From an uncultured Rickettsiales bacterium (GTDB taxonomy: Bacteria > Pseudomonadota > Alphaproteobacteria > Rickettsiales > SXRF01), in the NCBI GenBank assembly GCA_964575095.1, contig CAZNPA010000008.1, forward strand, positions 11,559 to 75,558: a stretch of DNA of 64,000 nucleotides. Reading direction: 5' to 3'. The translations under genes and the position numbers were made by a program. This document shows, one piece after another, positions 7,319 to 46,902 of this stretch; positions within the stretch are counted from its first letter, which is position 1; every line of letters begins with the position of its first letter. The notes below the pieces were generated by a model, which was not told where the DNA came from, made no database searches, and worked only from the letters and a program-made list of their open reading frames with translations.

Positions 7319-8572
7319 ATGAAGCTACGTGCATATGCATTACTGACGTTGACGCTGTTGCCGCTACCGGCGACGGCGGCGCCCAACCCGAAACTTGCCA
7401 TTGACGCCGTTGTCGGGTCGGAAGTTATTTCTTCGTATGACGTCAACAGCCGTTCGGCATTCATTGTCGCCACAGCGCACCTTTCCAGCACTCCGGATGC
7501 GATCGCCCATATCAGGCCACAAATCATCCGTATGCTAATCGACGAGCGGCTGCAAATGCAGGATGCCGAGAAAAACAAAATCGCCATCAGCGATCAGGAC
7601 GTCGCCGACACCATCGCCGCCATCGAGAAAGACCGCGGCATGCCGTCAGGAGGCGTGTTCCAGATGATGGCAGAAAAACGCATCCCCAAAGAAACGTTCG
7701 TGCAGCAGATCCGCGCGCAGCTGGCATGGCGCGAGATCGTGCGCCGAAAAATCCGCCCCTTCATCCGCATCAGCGACGAGGAAGTGAAATCAACGCCGGT
7801 TTCGGCAAATACCGCAACAACGGATTTGAAAATTGCTGTGCTGACCTTGCCGGTCGATTCGCCAAAACGTGAGGTCGAAGTGCAGCGTCTGGGCGAGAAG
7901 CTGGCTAAGGATATACGCGGCGGCGCCAATTTCGAAGAAGCGGCGCGACAGCTTTCGGTGAGGGCGGGCGGAGGAAGCACCGATACGTTCTGGGTGCGGC
8001 CGGAACAGCTGGACCCAGCCATGGCGCGTGCGCTGGCCGGAGCGGAGGCGGGCGCCATCACCAACCCGATACGGACCAGTGCGGGCTTTGTCATCGTAAA
8101 GATCTATGAGACACGTGCGCGTGACAGCGAGACGGCGCAGGATACCGAGGTGCAGCTTAAGGAAATACTGCTGAAACTGAAACCGGAAGCCTCACAGAAA
8201 GAAGCGGATGCGTTGCTGGCCATCAGTGAGGAGGTAGTAAAACACCCGGGCACATGCGAAGAAAAAACCATCGCCGGCGTTAACAACATCCCCGAATCCG
8301 ACATCGAGATAATCTTCCGCCGCGATATGGTATCGAACCTGCCGACGGCAGTGCGCACCATCGCCATGGGTCTTAAGGTAGGAGAAATCTCAACACCGTT
8401 TGCCAGCAGCCAGGGCATCCGGCTTTACATGCTCTGCGACAGGAAAGACACGTCTTCGGCCATCGCCGCCACCGAACGCGTGCGTACCCAGCTCTTCCAG
8501 CAGAAATTGGAACTGGAAGCGCAGAAATACATGCGCAATCTAAGGAAAGAAACGTTCATTGAAATCCGGTAA
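7319..8572 (+). CDS. surA: SurA-like periplasmic chaperone / parvulin-type peptidyl-prolyl isomerase
   Basis: Signal peptide, SurA N-terminal-type region and parvulin-like segments (SAGFVIVKI, SQGIRLYML). It follows lptD, which is the conserved position. Confidence 0.8.
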   Translation: MKLRAYALLTLTLLPLPATAAPNPKLAIDAVVGSEVISSYDVNSRSAFIVATAHLSSTPDAIAHIRPQIIRMLIDERLQMQDAEKNKIAISDQDVADTIAAIEKDRGMPSGGVFQMMAEKRIPKETFVQQIRAQLAWREIVRRKIRPFIRISDEEVKSTPVSANTATTDLKIAVLTLPVDSPKREVEVQRLGEKLAKDIRGGANFEEAARQLSVRAGGGSTDTFWVRPEQLDPAMARALAGAEAGAITNPIRTSAGFVIVKIYETRARDSETAQDTEVQLKEILLKLKPEASQKEADALLAISEEVVKHPGTCEEKTIAGVNNIPESDIEIIFRRDMVSNLPTAVRTIAMGLKVGEISTPFASSQGIRLYMLCDRKDTSSAIAATERVRTQLFQQKLELEAQKYMRNLRKETFIEIR

Positions 8573-13656: not shown

Positions 13657-14678
13657 GCGCAGCCGCCAAGAAAAAACAAACAGCCAAGCAAATCTCTTTC
13701 TGGTCGGACCGAAATCTGGCCTTGGAGGCCGTGCGCGTCACCGAAGCAGCAGCACTTGCCGCCTCGCGCTGGATGGGGCAGGGCCAGGAAAAAGCCGCCG
13801 ACCGCGCGGCGGTGAATGCCATGCGCGAAGCGCTAAACGGGCTATCGATTGATGGCACCGTAGTTATCGGCGAAGGCGAGCGCGACAAGGCGCCGATGCT
13901 CTATATCGGCGAAAAAGTTGGAAGCTCCCCCGGCGGCGGGCGGCAGATCGACATCGCGCTCGATCCGCTGGAAGGCACCACCATCTGCGCCAAGGGCGGC
14001 GTCAATTCGCTGGCGGTCATCGCCATGGCGGAGAAAGGCGGCTTCCTGCACGCGCCGGACGTTTATATGAACAAGATCGCCGTCGGCGGCGGATTGCCGG
14101 AGGGCGTCGTCGAGCTTGATAATAGCCCGGCCACCAATTTAAAGCGCCTCGCCAAGGCAAAAAAATGCGAGATTTCCGATCTCGTCGTCTGCATACTGGA
14201 ACGCGATAGACACGAAGCACTGATCGCCAAAACGCGCGAAGCCGGCGCCCGCATTAAACTGATTTCCGATGGCGACGTGGCCGGCGTCATCGCCACCTCG
14301 GTGCCGGAAGCGGGCATCGATCTTTACATCGGTATCGGCGGCGCGCCGGAAGGCGTGCTGGCGGCGGCGGCGCTGCGCTCGATCGGCGGCCAGATGCAAG
14401 GACGATTGCTGTTCTCCAAGCAGGAAGAAAAAACCCGCGCCAAGCGCATGGGCGTCTCCGACCTGAACAAAACCTACCATCTCGAAGATTTGGCCAAGGG
14501 CGACGTCATGTTCGCCGCCACCGGCGTCACCGATGGCTCAATGCTGAAGGGCGTTCGCCGTTTTCCCGGCGGCGCCACCACGCACTCGATCGTCATGCGC
14601 TCCAAGACCGGCACCGTCCGCACCATCGAGGCGCGGCATAATTTCACGAGAAAGACGTGGGGGGATCCTCAGTCGTAG
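13653..14678 (+). CDS. glpX: Class II fructose-1,6-bisphosphatase
   Basis: GlpX blocks DRAAVNAMREAL, GEGERDKAPML, DPLEGTT and IGGAPEGVLAAAAL. ATGA overlap with the hom stop. Confidence 0.92.
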   Translation: MSAAAKKKQTAKQISFWSDRNLALEAVRVTEAAALAASRWMGQGQEKAADRAAVNAMREALNGLSIDGTVVIGEGERDKAPMLYIGEKVGSSPGGGRQIDIALDPLEGTTICAKGGVNSLAVIAMAEKGGFLHAPDVYMNKIAVGGGLPEGVVELDNSPATNLKRLAKAKKCEISDLVVCILERDRHEALIAKTREAGARIKLISDGDVAGVIATSVPEAGIDLYIGIGGAPEGVLAAAALRSIGGQMQGRLLFSKQEEKTRAKRMGVSDLNKTYHLEDLAKGDVMFAATGVTDGSMLKGVRRFPGGATTHSIVMRSKTGTVRTIEARHNFTRKTWGDPQS

Positions 14679-15800: not shown

Positions 15801-17057
15801 ATGATTGCTTGGACTAAACATCTTTATATTCAGGTTATTATCGCCATCGTTCTTGGGGTCGCTTTTGGCTGTATGATGCCGCACGAGGCGGCAGCGATGA
15901 AACCGCTGGCGGATGCGTTTATCAAGCTCATCAAAATGCTGATCGCTCCCATCGTCTTTTGCACGGTGGTAACGGGTATTGCCGGCATGAAGAATATGGC
16001 CACCGCCGGACGCATCGGCCTTAAGGCTATTATTTACTTCGAGGTGCTGACAACGCTGGCGCTGCTCATCGGGCTGGCCGTGGCGCACCTGCACCAGCCC
16101 GGACTCAACCTGCATATCGATATGAGGACGCTCGATGCCGGTAGCATGAAAGACTATACCGCAAAAGCTGCTGCAACCGGCTCCGGCGTAGATTTTTTTC
16201 TGCATCTCATCCCGACAACGATCGTCGACGCCTTCGCCAAGGGCGACATGCTGCAGGTTCTGCTGATATCCGTTCTCTTCGCACTGGCGTTGATGAGTCT
16301 GGGCGGGCGTGGCGAAGCGGTTCACAATTTTATCCACCAGCTTTCCGCCGTTTTATTCACGATGATGGGCTGGGTCGTGCGGCTGGCGCCCATCGGCGCC
16401 TTTGCCGCCATGGCCTTTGCCGTCGGGAAATACGGCGTCGATATATTGACGTCGCTGGCGGCGCTGATGCTGGATTTTTACCTGACCTGCATTGTATTCA
16501 TCGCCGTCGGTCTGGGCGGCGTCATGCGCCTGGCCGGGCTCAGGCTGTGGCCGTTCCTCAAATATATCAAAGAGGAAATCGTGCTGGTGCTCGGCACTTC
16601 ATCGTCGGAAGCGGCGCTGCCGCGCATGCTGGATAAAATGGCGAAACTCGGCTGCGCCAAACCAGTCGTCGATATGGTGATCCCGACCGGCTATTCGTTC
16701 AACTTGGACGGCACCTGCATTTACCTCACCATGGCTGCGCTCTTCGTCGCTCACGCCACCGGCACCGAACTGACCTTTGCCGACGAACTCACATTACTGG
16801 CCGTGTTGCTCTTAACCTCCAAGGGCGCGGCGGCGGTCACCGGCGGCGGGTTCATCGTGCTGGCGGGAACGCTTTCCGCCATCGGCCATATTCCGGTCGA
16901 AGGGCTGGCGCTTATTCTGGGCGTCGATCGCTTCATGTCGGAGGGGCGCGCCATCACCAACCTCATCGGCAACGGCGTCGCCACGCTCGTCGTTTCCAAA
17001 TGGGAGCGGGCGCTGGATATGAAAAAAGTAAAAGCGGGATTGGGAATTCGGGATTAG
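15801..17057 (+). CDS. dctA: C4-dicarboxylate transporter (dicarboxylate/amino acid:cation symporter)
   Basis: Typical DAACS/DctA sequence throughout (KMLIAPIVFCTVVTGIAGM, GTSSSEAALP, IPTGYSFNLDG, TSKGAAAVTGGGF). The last codons (GLGIRD-stop) lie in the heptamer palindrome. Confidence 0.93.
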   Translation: MIAWTKHLYIQVIIAIVLGVAFGCMMPHEAAAMKPLADAFIKLIKMLIAPIVFCTVVTGIAGMKNMATAGRIGLKAIIYFEVLTTLALLIGLAVAHLHQPGLNLHIDMRTLDAGSMKDYTAKAAATGSGVDFFLHLIPTTIVDAFAKGDMLQVLLISVLFALALMSLGGRGEAVHNFIHQLSAVLFTMMGWVVRLAPIGAFAAMAFAVGKYGVDILTSLAALMLDFYLTCIVFIAVGLGGVMRLAGLRLWPFLKYIKEEIVLVLGTSSSEAALPRMLDKMAKLGCAKPVVDMVIPTGYSFNLDGTCIYLTMAALFVAHATGTELTFADELTLLAVLLLTSKGAAAVTGGGFIVLAGTLSAIGHIPVEGLALILGVDRFMSEGRAITNLIGNGVATLVVSKWERALDMKKVKAGLGIRD

Positions 17058-17117
17058 GGATTAAGAATAGTGATTTCTTTTTTCCTAATTCCCAATCCCG
17101 AATTCCCAATCCCTAAC
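17036..17117. repeat. 82-bp palindrome built from GGGATTN heptamers (MITE-like; possible bidirectional terminator)
   Basis: Left arm GGGATTGGGAATTCGGGATTAGGGATTAAG, an A/T-rich ~22-nt centre, and right arm CCTAATTCCCAATCCCGAATTCCCAATCCC, which is nearly the exact reverse complement. It spans the overlapping stops of the convergent dctA and EamA genes. Confidence 0.85.
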
Positions 17118-17974
17118 TTTGCCTCACGGCGGGCGATATAAACCGTACTGATGACGATGAGAAGCGCGCCCATCAATGTCGAAACCGTGATCGTCTCCCC
17201 GAACATTATATAGGCAAGGATACCGGCAAAAATCAGCCGCGTGAAATCGAACGGCATCAGGACTACCATGTCGGCACGCATGAAGGCACGCGTCAGCGCC
17301 AGGTGCGCCAGGGTCGAAAGCAGGGCGATTAAAAACACCAGCCATAACTGATAGGGCGTAACATCGTGCCAGTAAACAATAGCGGGCGGCACCGACCACG
17401 GAATCATAAAGAGCGCCATATAAAAGACGATAGTCTCCGGCGGTTCGGTACGCGTCAGCGTTTTCACCAGCACACCGGCTACCGCCATCATCGCCGACGA
17501 CATCAGCACAAAACTGGCGGCCGGGCTGATGCCACCGATGTCCGGCCGCATGATCACCAGCATCCCGGTAAAACCCAGCACGATGGCGCCCCAGCGATGC
17601 AGGCCGGCTTTTTCGCGCAGGAACAGGATGGCAAAGATGGTGGAGAAAATGGGCGTCGTGAACGAGAGCGCCGTCGCCAGCGTGATCGGCATGATCGAGA
17701 GCGAATAAAACCACAGCTCCATCGACACCACCCCCACTGCCGCGCGCCAGAAATGGCTTTTAAGGCGTCGGGTCGGAAAACGCGGCGAGCGGCGCTGCAA
17801 CGCCGCCGCCCAGACGACGATAATCACGAGGCTCATGACGTTGCGTAAAAACACCATCTCGGCCGGGTGCATGGTAAAGGACAGCAACCGGACGACGCTG
17901 GTCATAGCGGCGAAAAGCGCCATGCTGGCCAACATCAGGCCCATGGCGACGATGGTTTTCGAGAATGTCGGCAT
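17054..17974 (-). CDS. EamA/DMT-family transporter
   Basis: 306 aa with about 10 TM segments and two EamA-like halves. The C-terminal ~20 aa (LGIGNSGLGIRKKEITILNP) are encoded by the heptamer palindrome. Confidence 0.85.
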   Translation of the reverse strand: MPTFSKTIVAMGLMLASMALFAAMTSVVRLLSFTMHPAEMVFLRNVMSLVIIVVWAAALQRRSPRFPTRRLKSHFWRAAVGVVSMELWFYSLSIMPITLATALSFTTPIFSTIFAILFLREKAGLHRWGAIVLGFTGMLVIMRPDIGGISPAASFVLMSSAMMAVAGVLVKTLTRTEPPETIVFYMALFMIPWSVPPAIVYWHDVTPYQLWLVFLIALLSTLAHLALTRAFMRADMVVLMPFDFTRLIFAGILAYIMFGETITVSTLMGALLIVISTVYIARREAKLGIGNSGLGIRKKEITILNP

Positions 17975-25512: not shown

Positions 25513-25530
25513 TCTAAAAAAATCCAGACA

Positions 25531-25568
25531 AAAACCCGCCCCTCCCAACAAAGGAAGCGGGTTTTTTT
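25531..25568 (+). terminator. Rho-independent terminator
   Basis: AAAACCCGC ... GCGGG stem followed by a T7 run (25562-25568), 26 nt upstream of the next start codon. Confidence 0.7.
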
Positions 25569-25593
25569 ATGGTCATAACTTTCGGAATAAACA

Positions 25594-32392: not shown

Positions 32393-33754
32393 ATGACGTT
32401 CACCGTTGCTATTGTCGGCCGGCCCAATGTCGGTAAATCGACATTATTTAACCGCTTAACCGGCAAGCGCCGGGCACTGGTCGATGACGAGGCGGGGACG
32501 ACGCGCGACCGGCGCGAAGGCAAGGCCAAGCTGGGGCCGTTGGAATTTCGCATCATCGATACCGCCGGGCTGGAAGAGGCGAAAGCGGAGACTCTGGCAG
32601 CGCGCATGACCAGCCAGACCAAAGAAGCCCTCAAAGACGCCGACGTCGTGCTGATGATGATCGACGGCCGCGCCGGTGTGACGCCGATGGACCGGCACTT
32701 CGCCGAAATCGTGCGCCGTGCGCAAAAACCCGTGGTGCTGGCGGTCAACAAGGCCGAGGGCAAGGAATCGAAAAGCGCCATCGCCGAGGCGCACGCGCTG
32801 GGGCTCGGCGCGCCGGTGCCCATTTCCGCCGAGCATAACGAAGGCCTCGCGGATTTGTACGAGGCGCTGGCACCTTTTGAGAAAGGAAGTGGGGATTCGG
32901 GATTCGGGATTAAGGAAGAAGAAACAAATTTTATTCCCCCCAATCCCCCGCTTTCTATAGCCATCATCGGCCGGCCCAATGTCGGTAAATCGACGCTGAT
33001 GAACCGCATTTTAGGCGAGGAGCGGATGCTGACCGGCCCCGAGGCGGGTATCACGCGCGATGCGGTGATGGTGGAGCACGCATTCGAGGGGCGCCCTCTG
33101 GCGCTGGTCGATACCGCCGGGATGCGCCGCAAATCGAACGTGAAGGAAAAAGTCGAGAAATTGGCGGTCGCCGACGCGCTGGAGTCGCTCAAATACGCCG
33201 AGGTAGCGGTTCTGGTGATGGATGCCGAGATGCCGCTCGAAAAACAGGACAACGACATCGCGGCGCTGATCGAGCAGGAGGGTCGTGCTGTCGTCATCGC
33301 CGTCAATAAATGGGATATGGTCGAAGATGAGAAGGCGTTTCTTAAAGCCTTCCGCCAGCGGCTGGAATACGTGCTGCCGCAGGTGGCGGGTGTCGCCATC
33401 GTGCCGGTGTCGGCGGAGAAGGGGCAGGGCATCTCGAAGCTGCTCAAGGAATGCATCAAGGCGCATGCGGTGTGGAACAAGGAAATCTCGACCAGCCAGT
33501 TAAACCGCTGGCTGGAAGAGGCGCTTGCCGCCCACGCGCCGCCGCTGGTCAACAAGCGACGCGTCAAGATCCGCTACATGACGCAAAAAACGGCGCGGCC
33601 GCCGACGTTCATCTTATTCGCCAACACCGGCGACATTCCAGAGAGCTACATACGCTATCTGGTCAATTCCATGCGCGAGCACTTTCATTTGCCCGGCACG
33701 CCGATCCGCATTAAAATCCGCAAAGGGAATAATCCGTATGCCGGCCGCGATTGA
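32393..33754 (+). CDS. der: Ribosome-biogenesis GTPase Der (EngA), with a repeat-derived interdomain linker
   Basis: Two GTPase domains (GRPNVGKSTLFN and GRPNVGKSTLMN, each with DTAG and NK.D) and a KH-like C-terminus. Confidence 0.95.
   Translation: MTFTVAIVGRPNVGKSTLFNRLTGKRRALVDDEAGTTRDRREGKAKLGPLEFRIIDTAGLEEAKAETLAARMTSQTKEALKDADVVLMMIDGRAGVTPMDRHFAEIVRRAQKPVVLAVNKAEGKESKSAIAEAHALGLGAPVPISAEHNEGLADLYEALAPFEKGSGDSGFGIKEEETNFIPPNPPLSIAIIGRPNVGKSTLMNRILGEERMLTGPEAGITRDAVMVEHAFEGRPLALVDTAGMRRKSNVKEKVEKLAVADALESLKYAEVAVLVMDAEMPLEKQDNDIAALIEQEGRAVVIAVNKWDMVEDEKAFLKAFRQRLEYVLPQVAGVAIVPVSAEKGQGISKLLKECIKAHAVWNKEISTSQLNRWLEEALAAHAPPLVNKRRVKIRYMTQKTARPPTFILFANTGDIPESYIRYLVNSMREHFHLPGTPIRIKIRKGNNPYAGRD
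32891..32949. repeat. GGGATTN-heptamer element copy inside der
   Basis: GGGGATTCGGGATTCGGGATTAAGGAAGAAGAAACAAATTTTATTCCCCCCAATCCCCC. The left arm and A-rich centre match the 17036 palindrome, and the right arm is degenerate. It is translated as GDSGFGIKEEETNFIPPNPP. Confidence 0.75.
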
Positions 33755-45263: not shown

Positions 45264-46088
45264 ATGAAAAAATTCAGCCTGCATCTGGTGTCCGATTCGA
45301 CGGGAGAAACCGTAGGCGGGGTGGCGAGAGCGGCGCTGGCGCAATTCGATAACATCGAACCGGAAGAATTCACCTGGACGCTGGTAAGAAGTGACGCGCA
45401 AATCGAAAGGGTCATCGACGGCATTCGCCAGAATCCGGGCGTGGTTATGTATACGCTGGTCGATAACGCCCTGCGCGACAAACTTAAAATGGAATGTGCG
45501 CGGCGCGGCCTGCCGTGCATTGCCGTGATCGCCAACGTCGTCAACGAGCTTTCCTCCTATCTCGGTCAGGAGACGCACGCGTTGCCCGGGAAACAGCATG
45601 CGCTTGACGAAGAATATTTCCTGCGCGTCGACGCCGTCAATTACGCGTTGGCGCACGATGACGGCCAGGCGCACTGGGAGCTGGGCGACGCCGACATCGT
45701 GCTGGTCGGCGTGTCGCGCACGTCCAAATCCCCCACCTGCATGTATCTGGCTTATAAGGGCTACAAAACGGCCAACGTGCCGTTCGTGCTCGATTGCCCG
45801 TTGCCGACAACGCTGACGGAAATCAAAAAACCGCTGATCGTCGGGCTTATCATCGGCACCGACCGGCTGCAGCAGATACGGAAAACGCGGCTGCAATCGC
45901 TCAACACCGAAAAAGACACCAACTATGTCGATCCCGATCAGCTGCAGCGAGAGATCGCCGAATCGCGCAAGCTGTTCAACCAGCATAAATGGCCGGTGAT
46001 CGACGTTACCAAGCGCTCGGTCGAAGAAACGGCGGCGACGATCCTGCAGCATCTCAAAAAACACCAGGATAAGCAGGATGGCGCCTAA
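45264..46088 (+). CDS. Pyruvate, phosphate dikinase / PEP synthase regulatory protein (DUF299, PDRP/PpsR family)
   Basis: LHLVSDSTGET N-terminus and the P-loop-like VGVSRTSKSPT; 274 aa. Confidence 0.88.
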   Translation: MKKFSLHLVSDSTGETVGGVARAALAQFDNIEPEEFTWTLVRSDAQIERVIDGIRQNPGVVMYTLVDNALRDKLKMECARRGLPCIAVIANVVNELSSYLGQETHALPGKQHALDEEYFLRVDAVNYALAHDDGQAHWELGDADIVLVGVSRTSKSPTCMYLAYKGYKTANVPFVLDCPLPTTLTEIKKPLIVGLIIGTDRLQQIRKTRLQSLNTEKDTNYVDPDQLQREIAESRKLFNQHKWPVIDVTKRSVEETAATILQHLKKHQDKQDGA

Positions 46089-46902
46089 AGCCGGGATCAT
46101 CGGCTGGCCGGTAGCGCACAGCCTGTCGCCCAGACTGCACCGCTATTGGCTGGATGCGTATAACATTCCCGGCGAATATGTAATGCTGCCGGCCGAGCCG
46201 AAAGATCTGGCAAAAACCATGGCGTCATTACCGACGCAGGGCTTTTGCGGTGCCAATATCACCGTGCCGCATAAAGAAACGGTGATGAAGCTGTTGGATG
46301 AGACGGATGAAACCGCGCGCGCCATCGGCGCCGTCAATACGGTCATTATCAAAGGCGGAACATTGCGAGGCACCAATACCGATGCGTATGGTTTTGTCGA
46401 AAGTTTGCGGCAGGGCGGCGGGCTTGGCGTCAGGGGCAAGGCGGTGGTGCTGGGCGCGGGCGGTGCTGCGAAGGCCGTATGCAAGGCGCTTAGCGACGAG
46501 AATTTCTCCGGCGTTATCGTTGTATGCCGGTCGCCGGAAAAGGGATTCGGGATTCGTGATTCAGGATTCGGTAAGAAGAAAAATATAGCAATTAAAGCAT
46601 GGGAAGAGCGCAATACCGTTCTTGCCGGCGCCGATTTGCTGGTAAACGCCACCAGTCTGGGCATGCAGGGCAAAGAGGCGTTGGATATAGATTTAGCATT
46701 ATTGCCGACATCGGCGACGGTGATGGATCTGGTCTATGCGCCGCTTATCACGCCGCTCCTGGTGCAGGCGCAAAAGCGCGGCCATAATGTCATCGACGGG
46801 TTGAATATGCTGATTCATCAGGCAGTGCCGGCGTTCGAGGCGTGGTTCGGAGTGCGGCCGCAGGCGGATAAAGAAACAAGGGAACATTTGCTCCATGGGT
46901 AA
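46078..46902 (+). CDS. aroE: Shikimate dehydrogenase, with a repeat-derived segment after the NADP-binding glycine loop
   Basis: GIIGWPVAHSLSPRLH, NITVPHKE, GAVNT, LGAGGAAKA and NATSLGM motifs over 274 aa. Confidence 0.9.
   Translation: MAPKAGIIGWPVAHSLSPRLHRYWLDAYNIPGEYVMLPAEPKDLAKTMASLPTQGFCGANITVPHKETVMKLLDETDETARAIGAVNTVIIKGGTLRGTNTDAYGFVESLRQGGGLGVRGKAVVLGAGGAAKAVCKALSDENFSGVIVVCRSPEKGFGIRDSGFGKKKNIAIKAWEERNTVLAGADLLVNATSLGMQGKEALDIDLALLPTSATVMDLVYAPLITPLLVQAQKRGHNVIDGLNMLIHQAVPAFEAWFGVRPQADKETREHLLHG
46542..46590. repeat. GGGATTN-heptamer element copy inside aroE
   Basis: GGGATTC GGGATTC GTGATTC AGGATTC GGTAAGAAGAAAAATATAGC. Four heptamers plus an A-rich tail like the other copies, translated as GFGIRDSGFGKKKNIA. 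Confidence 0.75.

Follow-up and report, generated by a model that had tools for sequence, protein, structure and literature searches.

How can one short repeat come to supply the ends of two different proteins at once? The question is raised by 64,000 nucleotides of a contig from an uncultured Rickettsiales bacterium (this whole stretch is called the window below), in which two convergent transporter genes, dctA and an EamA/DMT gene (eamA), both terminate inside a single hairpin built of GGGATTN heptamers. The answer that we favour, with a probability of roughly 0.6, is that the hairpin is a local member of the known class of bacterial heptamer repeats, that it lies in a convergent 3′ junction where it is tolerated as at other permissive sites, and that it is most likely near-neutral to selection. 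Positions are those of the window unless a relative is named, and the coordinates of the features are collected in Table 1.

One hairpin and two gene ends

A sequence-only reading of this locus had described an 82-bp palindrome of GGGATTN heptamers. The palindrome is there; its core measures 78 bp (17036–17113), and the additional letters are the TAAC that follows it. A local repeat finder gave arms of 32 nt each, 91% complementary (29 of 32 positions pair) at a spacing of 14 nt, and Tandem Repeats Finder reported period 7 with 4.0 copies at 17036–17063 and 4.1 copies at 17082–17110. A window-wide inverted-repeat search (seed 8, maximum distance 40) did not return the element; the local search is the valid one. 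The borders read GC-GGGATT on the left and AATCCC-TAAC on the right. Three of the four left-arm units fit GGGANTN, the exception being GGAATTC, and none of the units is GGGAATC. On the − strand, the loop and the adjoining inner arm bases form a purine-rich AGG AAA AAA GAA, which is RKKE in EamA.

With up to three mismatches allowed, the pattern of three GGGATTN units (GGGATTNGGGATTNGGGATT) matched 11 times in the window against 0.07 matches expected from shuffles. Folding of the hairpin as RNA, which had been proposed as a check, gave −48.6 kcal/mol on the + strand (z = −8.6) and −54.9 kcal/mol on the − strand (z = −9.0), with 0 of 200 shuffles folding as well. The structure is strongly stable on both strands, and the observation of a hairpin is confirmed. 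A search of the whole window against Rfam produced no match at the gathering score; below it, plant microRNA precursors were the only models that the hairpin matched, at scores far under their thresholds, and these were discarded as generic long-hairpin matches.

An assembly artefact or chance simple sequence has a negligible probability as an explanation. Palindromes can be assembly chimeras and the source is a metagenome-type contig, but the element is internal to that 88.9-kb contig, a separate Logan assembly (L001, run SRR14271334; it may share reads with the window assembly) is identical over the hairpin, and a related copy lies at the same junction in another sample (L123). Shuffled sequences, for their part, never matched the observed counts or fold energies.

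The dctA gene, assigned by Pfam to the SDF family, is the open reading frame (ORF) 15801–17057 on the + strand and ends ...KAGLGIRD; eamA, assigned to the EamA family, is ORF 17054–17974 on the − strand. As the sequence-only reading had stated, dctA ends inside the left arm and the two stop codons, at 17055–17057 and 17054–17056, have 2 nt in common. Alignment with orthologues, also proposed as a check, located the point at which homology stops. EamA relatives (n = 60) align up to ...STVYIA(H/R)REA(K/R), beyond which they carry unconserved tails of 5–17 residues; in the window, homology ends before the repeat, at ...REAK, and all 20 residues of the tail are repeat-coded. DctA relatives (n = 30) align up to ...KWERALDMKKxKxxL and mostly end a few residues further on (for example, ...MKKAKKTLGL); in the window, homology reaches ...KKVKA and only about the last six residues (GLGIRD) come from the repeat. 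The same repeat-coded tails were found in no repeat-free orthologue among these aligned relatives, whose own tails differ and are unconserved. The claim that both C-termini had been remodelled therefore stands for EamA and was overstated for DctA: judged from the alignments, remodelling is large for the former and small for the latter.

The tails of one DctA relative (P0138, ..LGMKGIGD) and two EamA relatives (P0026, GKGISDKG; P0020, KKMPPSGLPAAGL) look heptamer-coded, which suggests that the same gene ends may have been colonised repeatedly in other lineages.

The GlnD–EamA–DctA–DUF6624 neighbourhood is kept in relatives, and where the repeat is lacking the junction is tight. The 3′ ends of eamA and dctA overlap by 8 nt in L124 (GCA_964645205.1), by 12 nt in L126 (GCA_964469525.1) and by 41 nt on the contig of P0002 and P0126, and they are 5 nt apart in L128; L122 lacks dctA altogether. 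P0002 is the closest EamA relative (75% identity) and has a tail that is not repeat-like, its empty site being known from gene coordinates and proteins. The stretch from the conserved REA codons of eamA to the WE codons of dctA measures 58 nt in L124 and 72 nt in L126; where the repeat is present, it measures 104 nt (L123) and 113 nt (window), so that the window junction has gained 41–55 nt over these repeat-free relatives. Because the 3′ ends of the two genes overlap or abut and leave no intergenic space, both genes read into the added DNA. The hairpin had been described as a single insertion; that it came in one event is uncertain, as heptamer pairs come and go quickly at permissive sites in this clade.

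The position of the two stops follows from the unit itself. Six-frame translation of each unit type showed that arrays of GGGATTC, GGGATTG and GGGATTT are open in all six frames, and that stops occur only in GGGATTA units, where the G strand reads TAG and the C strand TAA. Both window stops sit in the single TTAG formed by one GGGATTA unit and the G after it. Since only the GGGATTA unit has stops, and has them on both strands, the overlap of the stop codons is a built-in property of that unit and no coincidence. The 7-residue peptide period noted earlier was also recovered, (GGGATTC)3 encoding GIRDSGF.

Copies in der and aroE and at the same junction in a relative

GGGATTN copies occur at three loci within the 64 kb (17036, 32885 and 46541). 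The two further copies, previously placed at 32891 and 46542, are both present, with the amendment that they lie in frame inside der and aroE. The der copy is located in the linker between the two GTPase domains, where it encodes ...FEKGSGDSGFGIKEEETNFIPPNPPLS...; both arms are present and the palindrome is decayed (fold z = −1.9). The purine-rich centre may or may not be part of the element: in der it resembles the native acidic linker, but sequence of such low complexity does not allow a decision. The aroE copy consists of the left array only, with no right arm and no hairpin (z = +0.3), and encodes ...PEKGFGIRDSGFGKKKN...; by comparison with 47 homologues and the structure 2egg, this array takes the place, at equal length, of the helix that follows NRT (here CRS), a motif of the NADP site.

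L123 (Logan run SRR29564156), the EamA of which is 70% identical to that of the window, has a repeat at the same eamA/dctA junction, reading GGCATTC GGCCTTC GGGATTA GGGATTA AGGAAAGTTTTTAA CCCCCCTGATGCCCAATCCC. In L123, too, both genes run on into the repeat, and a TTAA in the centre provides their overlapping stops; pairing is mostly lost (z = −1.1 and −2.8). In L129, from the same sample, a der gene 78% identical to that of the window carries an intact GGGATTN palindrome of 4+4 units in the linker (z = −4.1). The two sites thus show opposite states: at eamA/dctA the window has the intact copy and L123 the decayed one, whereas at der the intact copy is that of L129 and the decayed one that of the window. 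Such a pattern argues against strong, site-specific selection to keep the hairpin. The junction copies of the window and L123 may or may not go back to one insertion, as the gene trees disagree: in the der tree the window and the L123/L129 organism are neighbours, whereas in the EamA tree they are not, closer EamA relatives (P0002–P0004) being without the repeat.

These comparisons bear on the alternative that selection keeps the hairpin as an adaptive bidirectional terminator or 3′ end protector, which, as the two genes leave no intergenic space, would end their transcripts or shield them from 3′ exonucleases and from collisions of converging polymerases. Bidirectional intrinsic terminators have one hairpin common to two convergent transcription units, and the element is like them in being common to two convergent genes, with a U-run (GCUUUUACUUUUUU, 10 U in 14) 3′ of the hairpin on the eamA strand; it is unlike them in its 32-bp stem, its 14-nt loop, the location of both stops within the stem and the lack of a U-run on the dctA side (UAACUUUGCC). 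High stability on both strands and near-perfect arm pairing speak for such a role, as does the fact that a 3′ end just beyond the hairpin, which holds both stops, would leave both ORFs complete. Ranged against this, the ribosome on eamA has to melt nearly the whole stem before its stop, relatives manage overlapping gene ends without such a hairpin, the L123 copy at the same junction has decayed, and the genome has ordinary terminator-like hairpins, for example at 25524–25572 (CCAGACAAAAACCCGC ... GCGGGTTTTTTTATGG). A terminator consensus scan made no call at the element, which is uninformative either way, the loop limit of the scan being 8 nt against a loop of 14 nt. As a class, heptamer repeats do sit just 3′ of ORFs, but Rehm et al. 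found no regulatory role for them (PMC4692102). On balance, we regard a selected terminator or end protector as possible but unlikely.

Inverted heptamer pairs across the clade

In relatives, the der linker holds inverted heptamer pairs right after the F-E-K codons, with at least five different units (Table 1); the pair of L142 starts earlier, and most relatives have a linker without a heptamer pair. In a der tree built without the linker, the unit types are scattered, and two close pairs of sequences (P0281/P0276 and P0254/P0296) differ by the presence or absence of the array. For the first of these pairs, the der genes of L211 (with the array) and L212 are 93–97% identical in DNA, and L211 differs by 25 nt gained on the left, 4 nt lost in the purine-rich centre and about 32 nt on the right replaced at equal length.

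Beyond der, 944 kb of the clade contained 31 period-7 arrays with at least nine unrelated units. A reverse-complement partner lay within 300 nt for 24 of the 31, compared with 3 for a permuted-unit control. The unit is specific to the locus, also among loci of a single contig, and both arms of each locus match. That each genome would have one heptamer type was considered and rejected, contig L211 alone holding three types. The bracketed centres range from 13 to 200 nt and may be native coding or intergenic sequence. Heptamer pairs are tolerated at permissive sites and turn over fast in this clade.

A non-autonomous mobile element akin to REP/REPINs or MITEs, with its transposase encoded elsewhere and the junction copy as one insertion, would account for several dispersed copies (eamA/dctA, der and aroE) that share their unit and resemble one another in the purine-rich centre, for near-identical genes that differ by an array pair, and for the net gain in length at the junction. 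REP, BIME and REPIN sequences are short dispersed intergenic palindromes, for which roles in termination and mRNA stabilisation have been proposed (PMC3733652, PMC3116915); REP sequences are extragenic, measure 20–40 bp, are tied to RAYT transposases and have one palindrome end marked by the tetranucleotide GTAG or CGTC (PMC3733652). The junction element is likewise a short dispersed palindrome between genes, but it has neither head at either end, measures 78 bp and is translated on both strands. Nor is a target-site duplication evident. Copying and pasting of a master element would not yield units that vary by locus while the arms match, and the arms can bracket 180–200 nt of native sequence. 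We consider this explanation improbable.

The clade also bears on the proposal that the selected feature is a G-quadruplex (G4), formed in DNA or RNA by the four G3 tracts that each G-rich arm contains. The only two (G3N1–7)3G3 motifs of the 64 kb, at 17036–17059 (+) and 17091–17113 (−), are the two arms of the element, and related Xanthomonas units form G4 in vitro, with four units preferred (PMC4692102). However, each G arm is followed by its own complement, so that the hairpin competes with the quadruplex, and the same architecture is built in relatives, even in the der linker, from the G-tract-free units CGGTCAG, CAGTTGC, AGTTGAT, TTAGTTG and GCGAATG. Because most units of the clade are not G-rich and lack G tracts, G4 potential is not the common denominator of the architecture, and selection for a quadruplex appears very improbable.

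Table 1 Features of the junction hairpin, further copies in the window and inverted heptamer pairs in the der linker of relatives
Feature	Position	Strand	Content
Left arm	17036–17067		GGGATTG GGAATTC GGGATTA GGGATTA AGAA; G-rich on + strand
Loop	17068–17081		TAGTGATTTCTTTT, 14 nt
Right arm	17082–17113		TTCC TAATTCC CAATCCC GAATTCC CAATCCC; G-rich on − strand
Repeat-coded dctA end	17037–17057	+	Codons G L G I R D; stop TAG at 17055–17057
Repeat-coded EamA tail	17054–17116	−	LGIGNSGLGIRKKEITILNP; stop TAA (TTA on + strand) at 17054–17056
U-rich run GCUUUUACUUUUUU	17022–17035	−	Follows the hairpin immediately 3′ in the eamA transcript; encodes K K V K A of DctA
Second copy	32885–32950	+	In frame in the GD1–GD2 linker of der/engA (ORF 32393–33754): GGAAGTG GGGATTC GGGATTC GGGATTA, purine-rich centre, CCCCCCAATCCCC
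Third copy	46541–46571	+	In frame in aroE (ORF 46078–46902): GGGATTC GGGATTC GTGATTC AGGATTC, then GGTAAGAAGAAAAA
GGGATTN der linker pairs	Window 32885–32950; L129 8590–8682; L142 5278–5353		P0250 and P0254 deduced from peptides
CGGTCAG/CTGACCG der linker pair	L130 10488–10575		z = −6.1
CAGTTNG der linker pair with CTGCCAT	L131 10032–10104		
CAGTTGC-like der linker pair	L211 10490–10575		
GAGTGTG/CACACTC der linker pair	P0274		Deduced from peptide ECGVWSV...TLHTPHS

Several pairs outside der illustrate the range of centres and units. In L135, an inverted GGATTCA/GGGATTC pair (7702–7725 and 7902–7928) lies inside the gene for a 1161-aa oxidoreductase and brackets about 180 nt that resemble native coding sequence for the FAD-binding domain. 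In L143, an inverted TTAGTTG/CAACTAA pair (13711–13744 and 13944–13969) surrounds a whole 200-nt intergenic region with two hairpins inside; one of the arrays encodes the first residues, MTNNQ, of a 710-aa ORF, which from a reading of its sequence may be a polyphosphate kinase. Further inverted pairs, with the units AGTTGAT, CAGAGTC, CAGTCTC and GCGAATG, were seen in L211 (16975–17075 and 5555–5640), L131 (2655–2720) and L205 (4268–4343). The L131 and L205 pairs have purine-rich centres, and the AGTTGAT pair apparently, on our assumption, adjoins a tRNA gene.

At the other end of eamA in the window, the divergent GlnD ORF as mechanically called (from a GTG at 17867) shares 17867–17974 with the 5′ end of eamA; the true start of glnD is probably further downstream than 17867.

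Described repeats, origin and meaning

The element belongs to a broad and already described class of bacterial heptamer repeats, itself unexplained, to which it adds a further example; it does not make a kind of its own. Rehm et al. (2015) reported G-rich heptamer repeats of the form GGGAATC or (GGGANTN)n in Xanthomonas and GGGGA(C/T)T in Nostoc, with 186 and 183 arrays per Xanthomonas genome and a preference for four units; 70–75 arrays per genome form convergent inverted pairs from which stem-loops are possible (PMC4692102). Those arrays lie on average 28 nt past the upstream ORF, with 16% between convergent ORFs and 7–11% overlapping ORFs; most are transcribed and G4 formation was seen in vitro, but no function or regulatory role was found (PMC4692102). 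The same literature names heptamers as the most over-represented long repeat unit and also covers cyanobacterial heptanucleotide repeats. The window element resembles these repeats in its roughly four units per array, inverted pairing, location at the 3′ ends of ORFs, G4 motif and dispersal, with most units fitting GGGANTN. It differs in its alphaproteobacterial host, its 14-nt loop, its translation on both strands with both stops inside and its sister copies in frame within der and aroE. At least one GGGAATC unit was a search criterion of Rehm et al. (PMC4692102). As no such unit is present here, we file the element under the broad heptamer kind and not under the narrow Xanthomonas family; what places it there is a tandem 7-nt unit, a reverse-complement partner array, dispersed copies and placement at ORF 3′ ends.

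A scan of a genome collection for GGGATTNGGGATTNGGGATT returned at least 120 loci in many phyla, where we estimate that about 17 matches would arise by chance (596 Gb, both strands). Among the matches listed, hosts include Xanthomonas (L008, L031, L040, L045 and L096), Lysobacter, Rhodanobacter and Dokdonella, as well as Nostocales and other cyanobacteria, Chloroflexota, Acidobacteriota, Planctomycetota and Bacteroidota; an AATCCC array lies no more than 200 nt downstream in 45 of the at least 120 GGGATTN loci, again among those listed. Long perfect runs occur in distant bacteria at three loci (L009, L029 and L120): Rubripirellula has 11 GGGATTA units and then GGGGTTA units, a metagenome-assembled genome of Aeromonas has 14 GGGATTC units, and in Oscillochloris 17 GGGATTT units stand at the end of a contig.

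Two other kinds of repeat invite comparison. TAACTGA heptamers, which for the most part precede start codons, occur in Beggiatoaceae, cyanobacteria and Bacteroidetes (PMC4679880). The cyanobacterial STRR (short tandemly repeated repetitive) heptamers and the TAACTGA repeats share with the window element their dispersed tandem heptamers, their location mostly at gene boundaries, their patchy occurrence across phyla, an unexplained origin and the possibility of several unit types per genome; they are described chiefly as direct arrays, whereas here there is a matched inverted pair with coding use. STRR are reportedly listed inside a cyanobacterial functional RNA gene, a match of the term only. 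Rickettsia palindromic elements (RPE) are about 100–150 bp long, are not built of heptamers and form sequence families with a consensus. The window element is like them an alphaproteobacterial palindromic repeat found in frame at permissive protein sites, the der and aroE copies keeping the frame, and is set apart from them, by description, in being shorter and built of heptamers. RPE are reportedly the subject of Ogata et al. 2000 (Science).

To return to the favoured explanation of a tolerated, near-neutral heptamer pair, we propose the following course of events. GGGATTN arrays, four units to each arm and a short purine-rich stretch between the arms, would have arisen or landed at the convergent transporter junction. 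Extra DNA in an overlapping or abutting junction falls upstream of at least one stop codon and would be translated, and both frames would then run through units of the G, C and T types to the first GGGATTA, the TTAG of which provides TAG on one strand and TAA on the other. Tolerance would come from the unconserved transporter tails, and likewise from the der linker and the aroE site, with filtering for permissive sites as with RPE. As to origin, replication slippage may extend an array and hairpin-templated strand switching may mirror it to the other arm; the two processes together would hold the two arms matched at each locus. Quasipalindrome correction by template switching is an established mutational mechanism. 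As a by-product, the hairpin probably pauses or ends transcription, more probably for eamA, with its U-run, than for dctA.

Two observations weigh against this explanation. If the window copy dates back to the split from the L123 lineage, its 29/32 pairing is hard to square with pure neutrality; recent formation or re-insertion, homogenisation or selection is needed to explain it, and any of these may apply. Also, the event that separates L211 from L212 looks, from the alignment of their der genes, more complex than simple slippage.

The most interesting lead goes beyond the original finding: it is the paired architecture that is independent of the unit and recurs in the der linker. A general, undescribed process that writes matched heptamer arrays on either side of a centre, whatever the unit, is a tentative and rather doubtful idea at present. 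A dedicated enzyme, or a replication or repair pathway specific to hairpins, would be candidates for it. If such a process is real and an active mechanism drives it, bacteria would have a previously unrecognised source of structural mutation, one that also reaches into essential genes.

The locus provides a sequence-level account of how one repeat can rewrite two protein ends at once, the ingredients being overlapping convergent gene ends, a repeat open in six frames and one unit type that has a stop on either strand. With it, the poorly understood class of heptamer repeats now reaches into uncultured Alphaproteobacteria, in which such repeats are tolerated in frame in the housekeeping genes der and aroE, much as RPE are. 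For annotation, gene callers will give odd, repeat-derived tails and linkers rich in Gly, Ile, Arg, Asp and Ser. Finally, the recurrence of the same paired architecture with unrelated units that are not G-rich points the question of origin towards hairpin-related DNA transactions.

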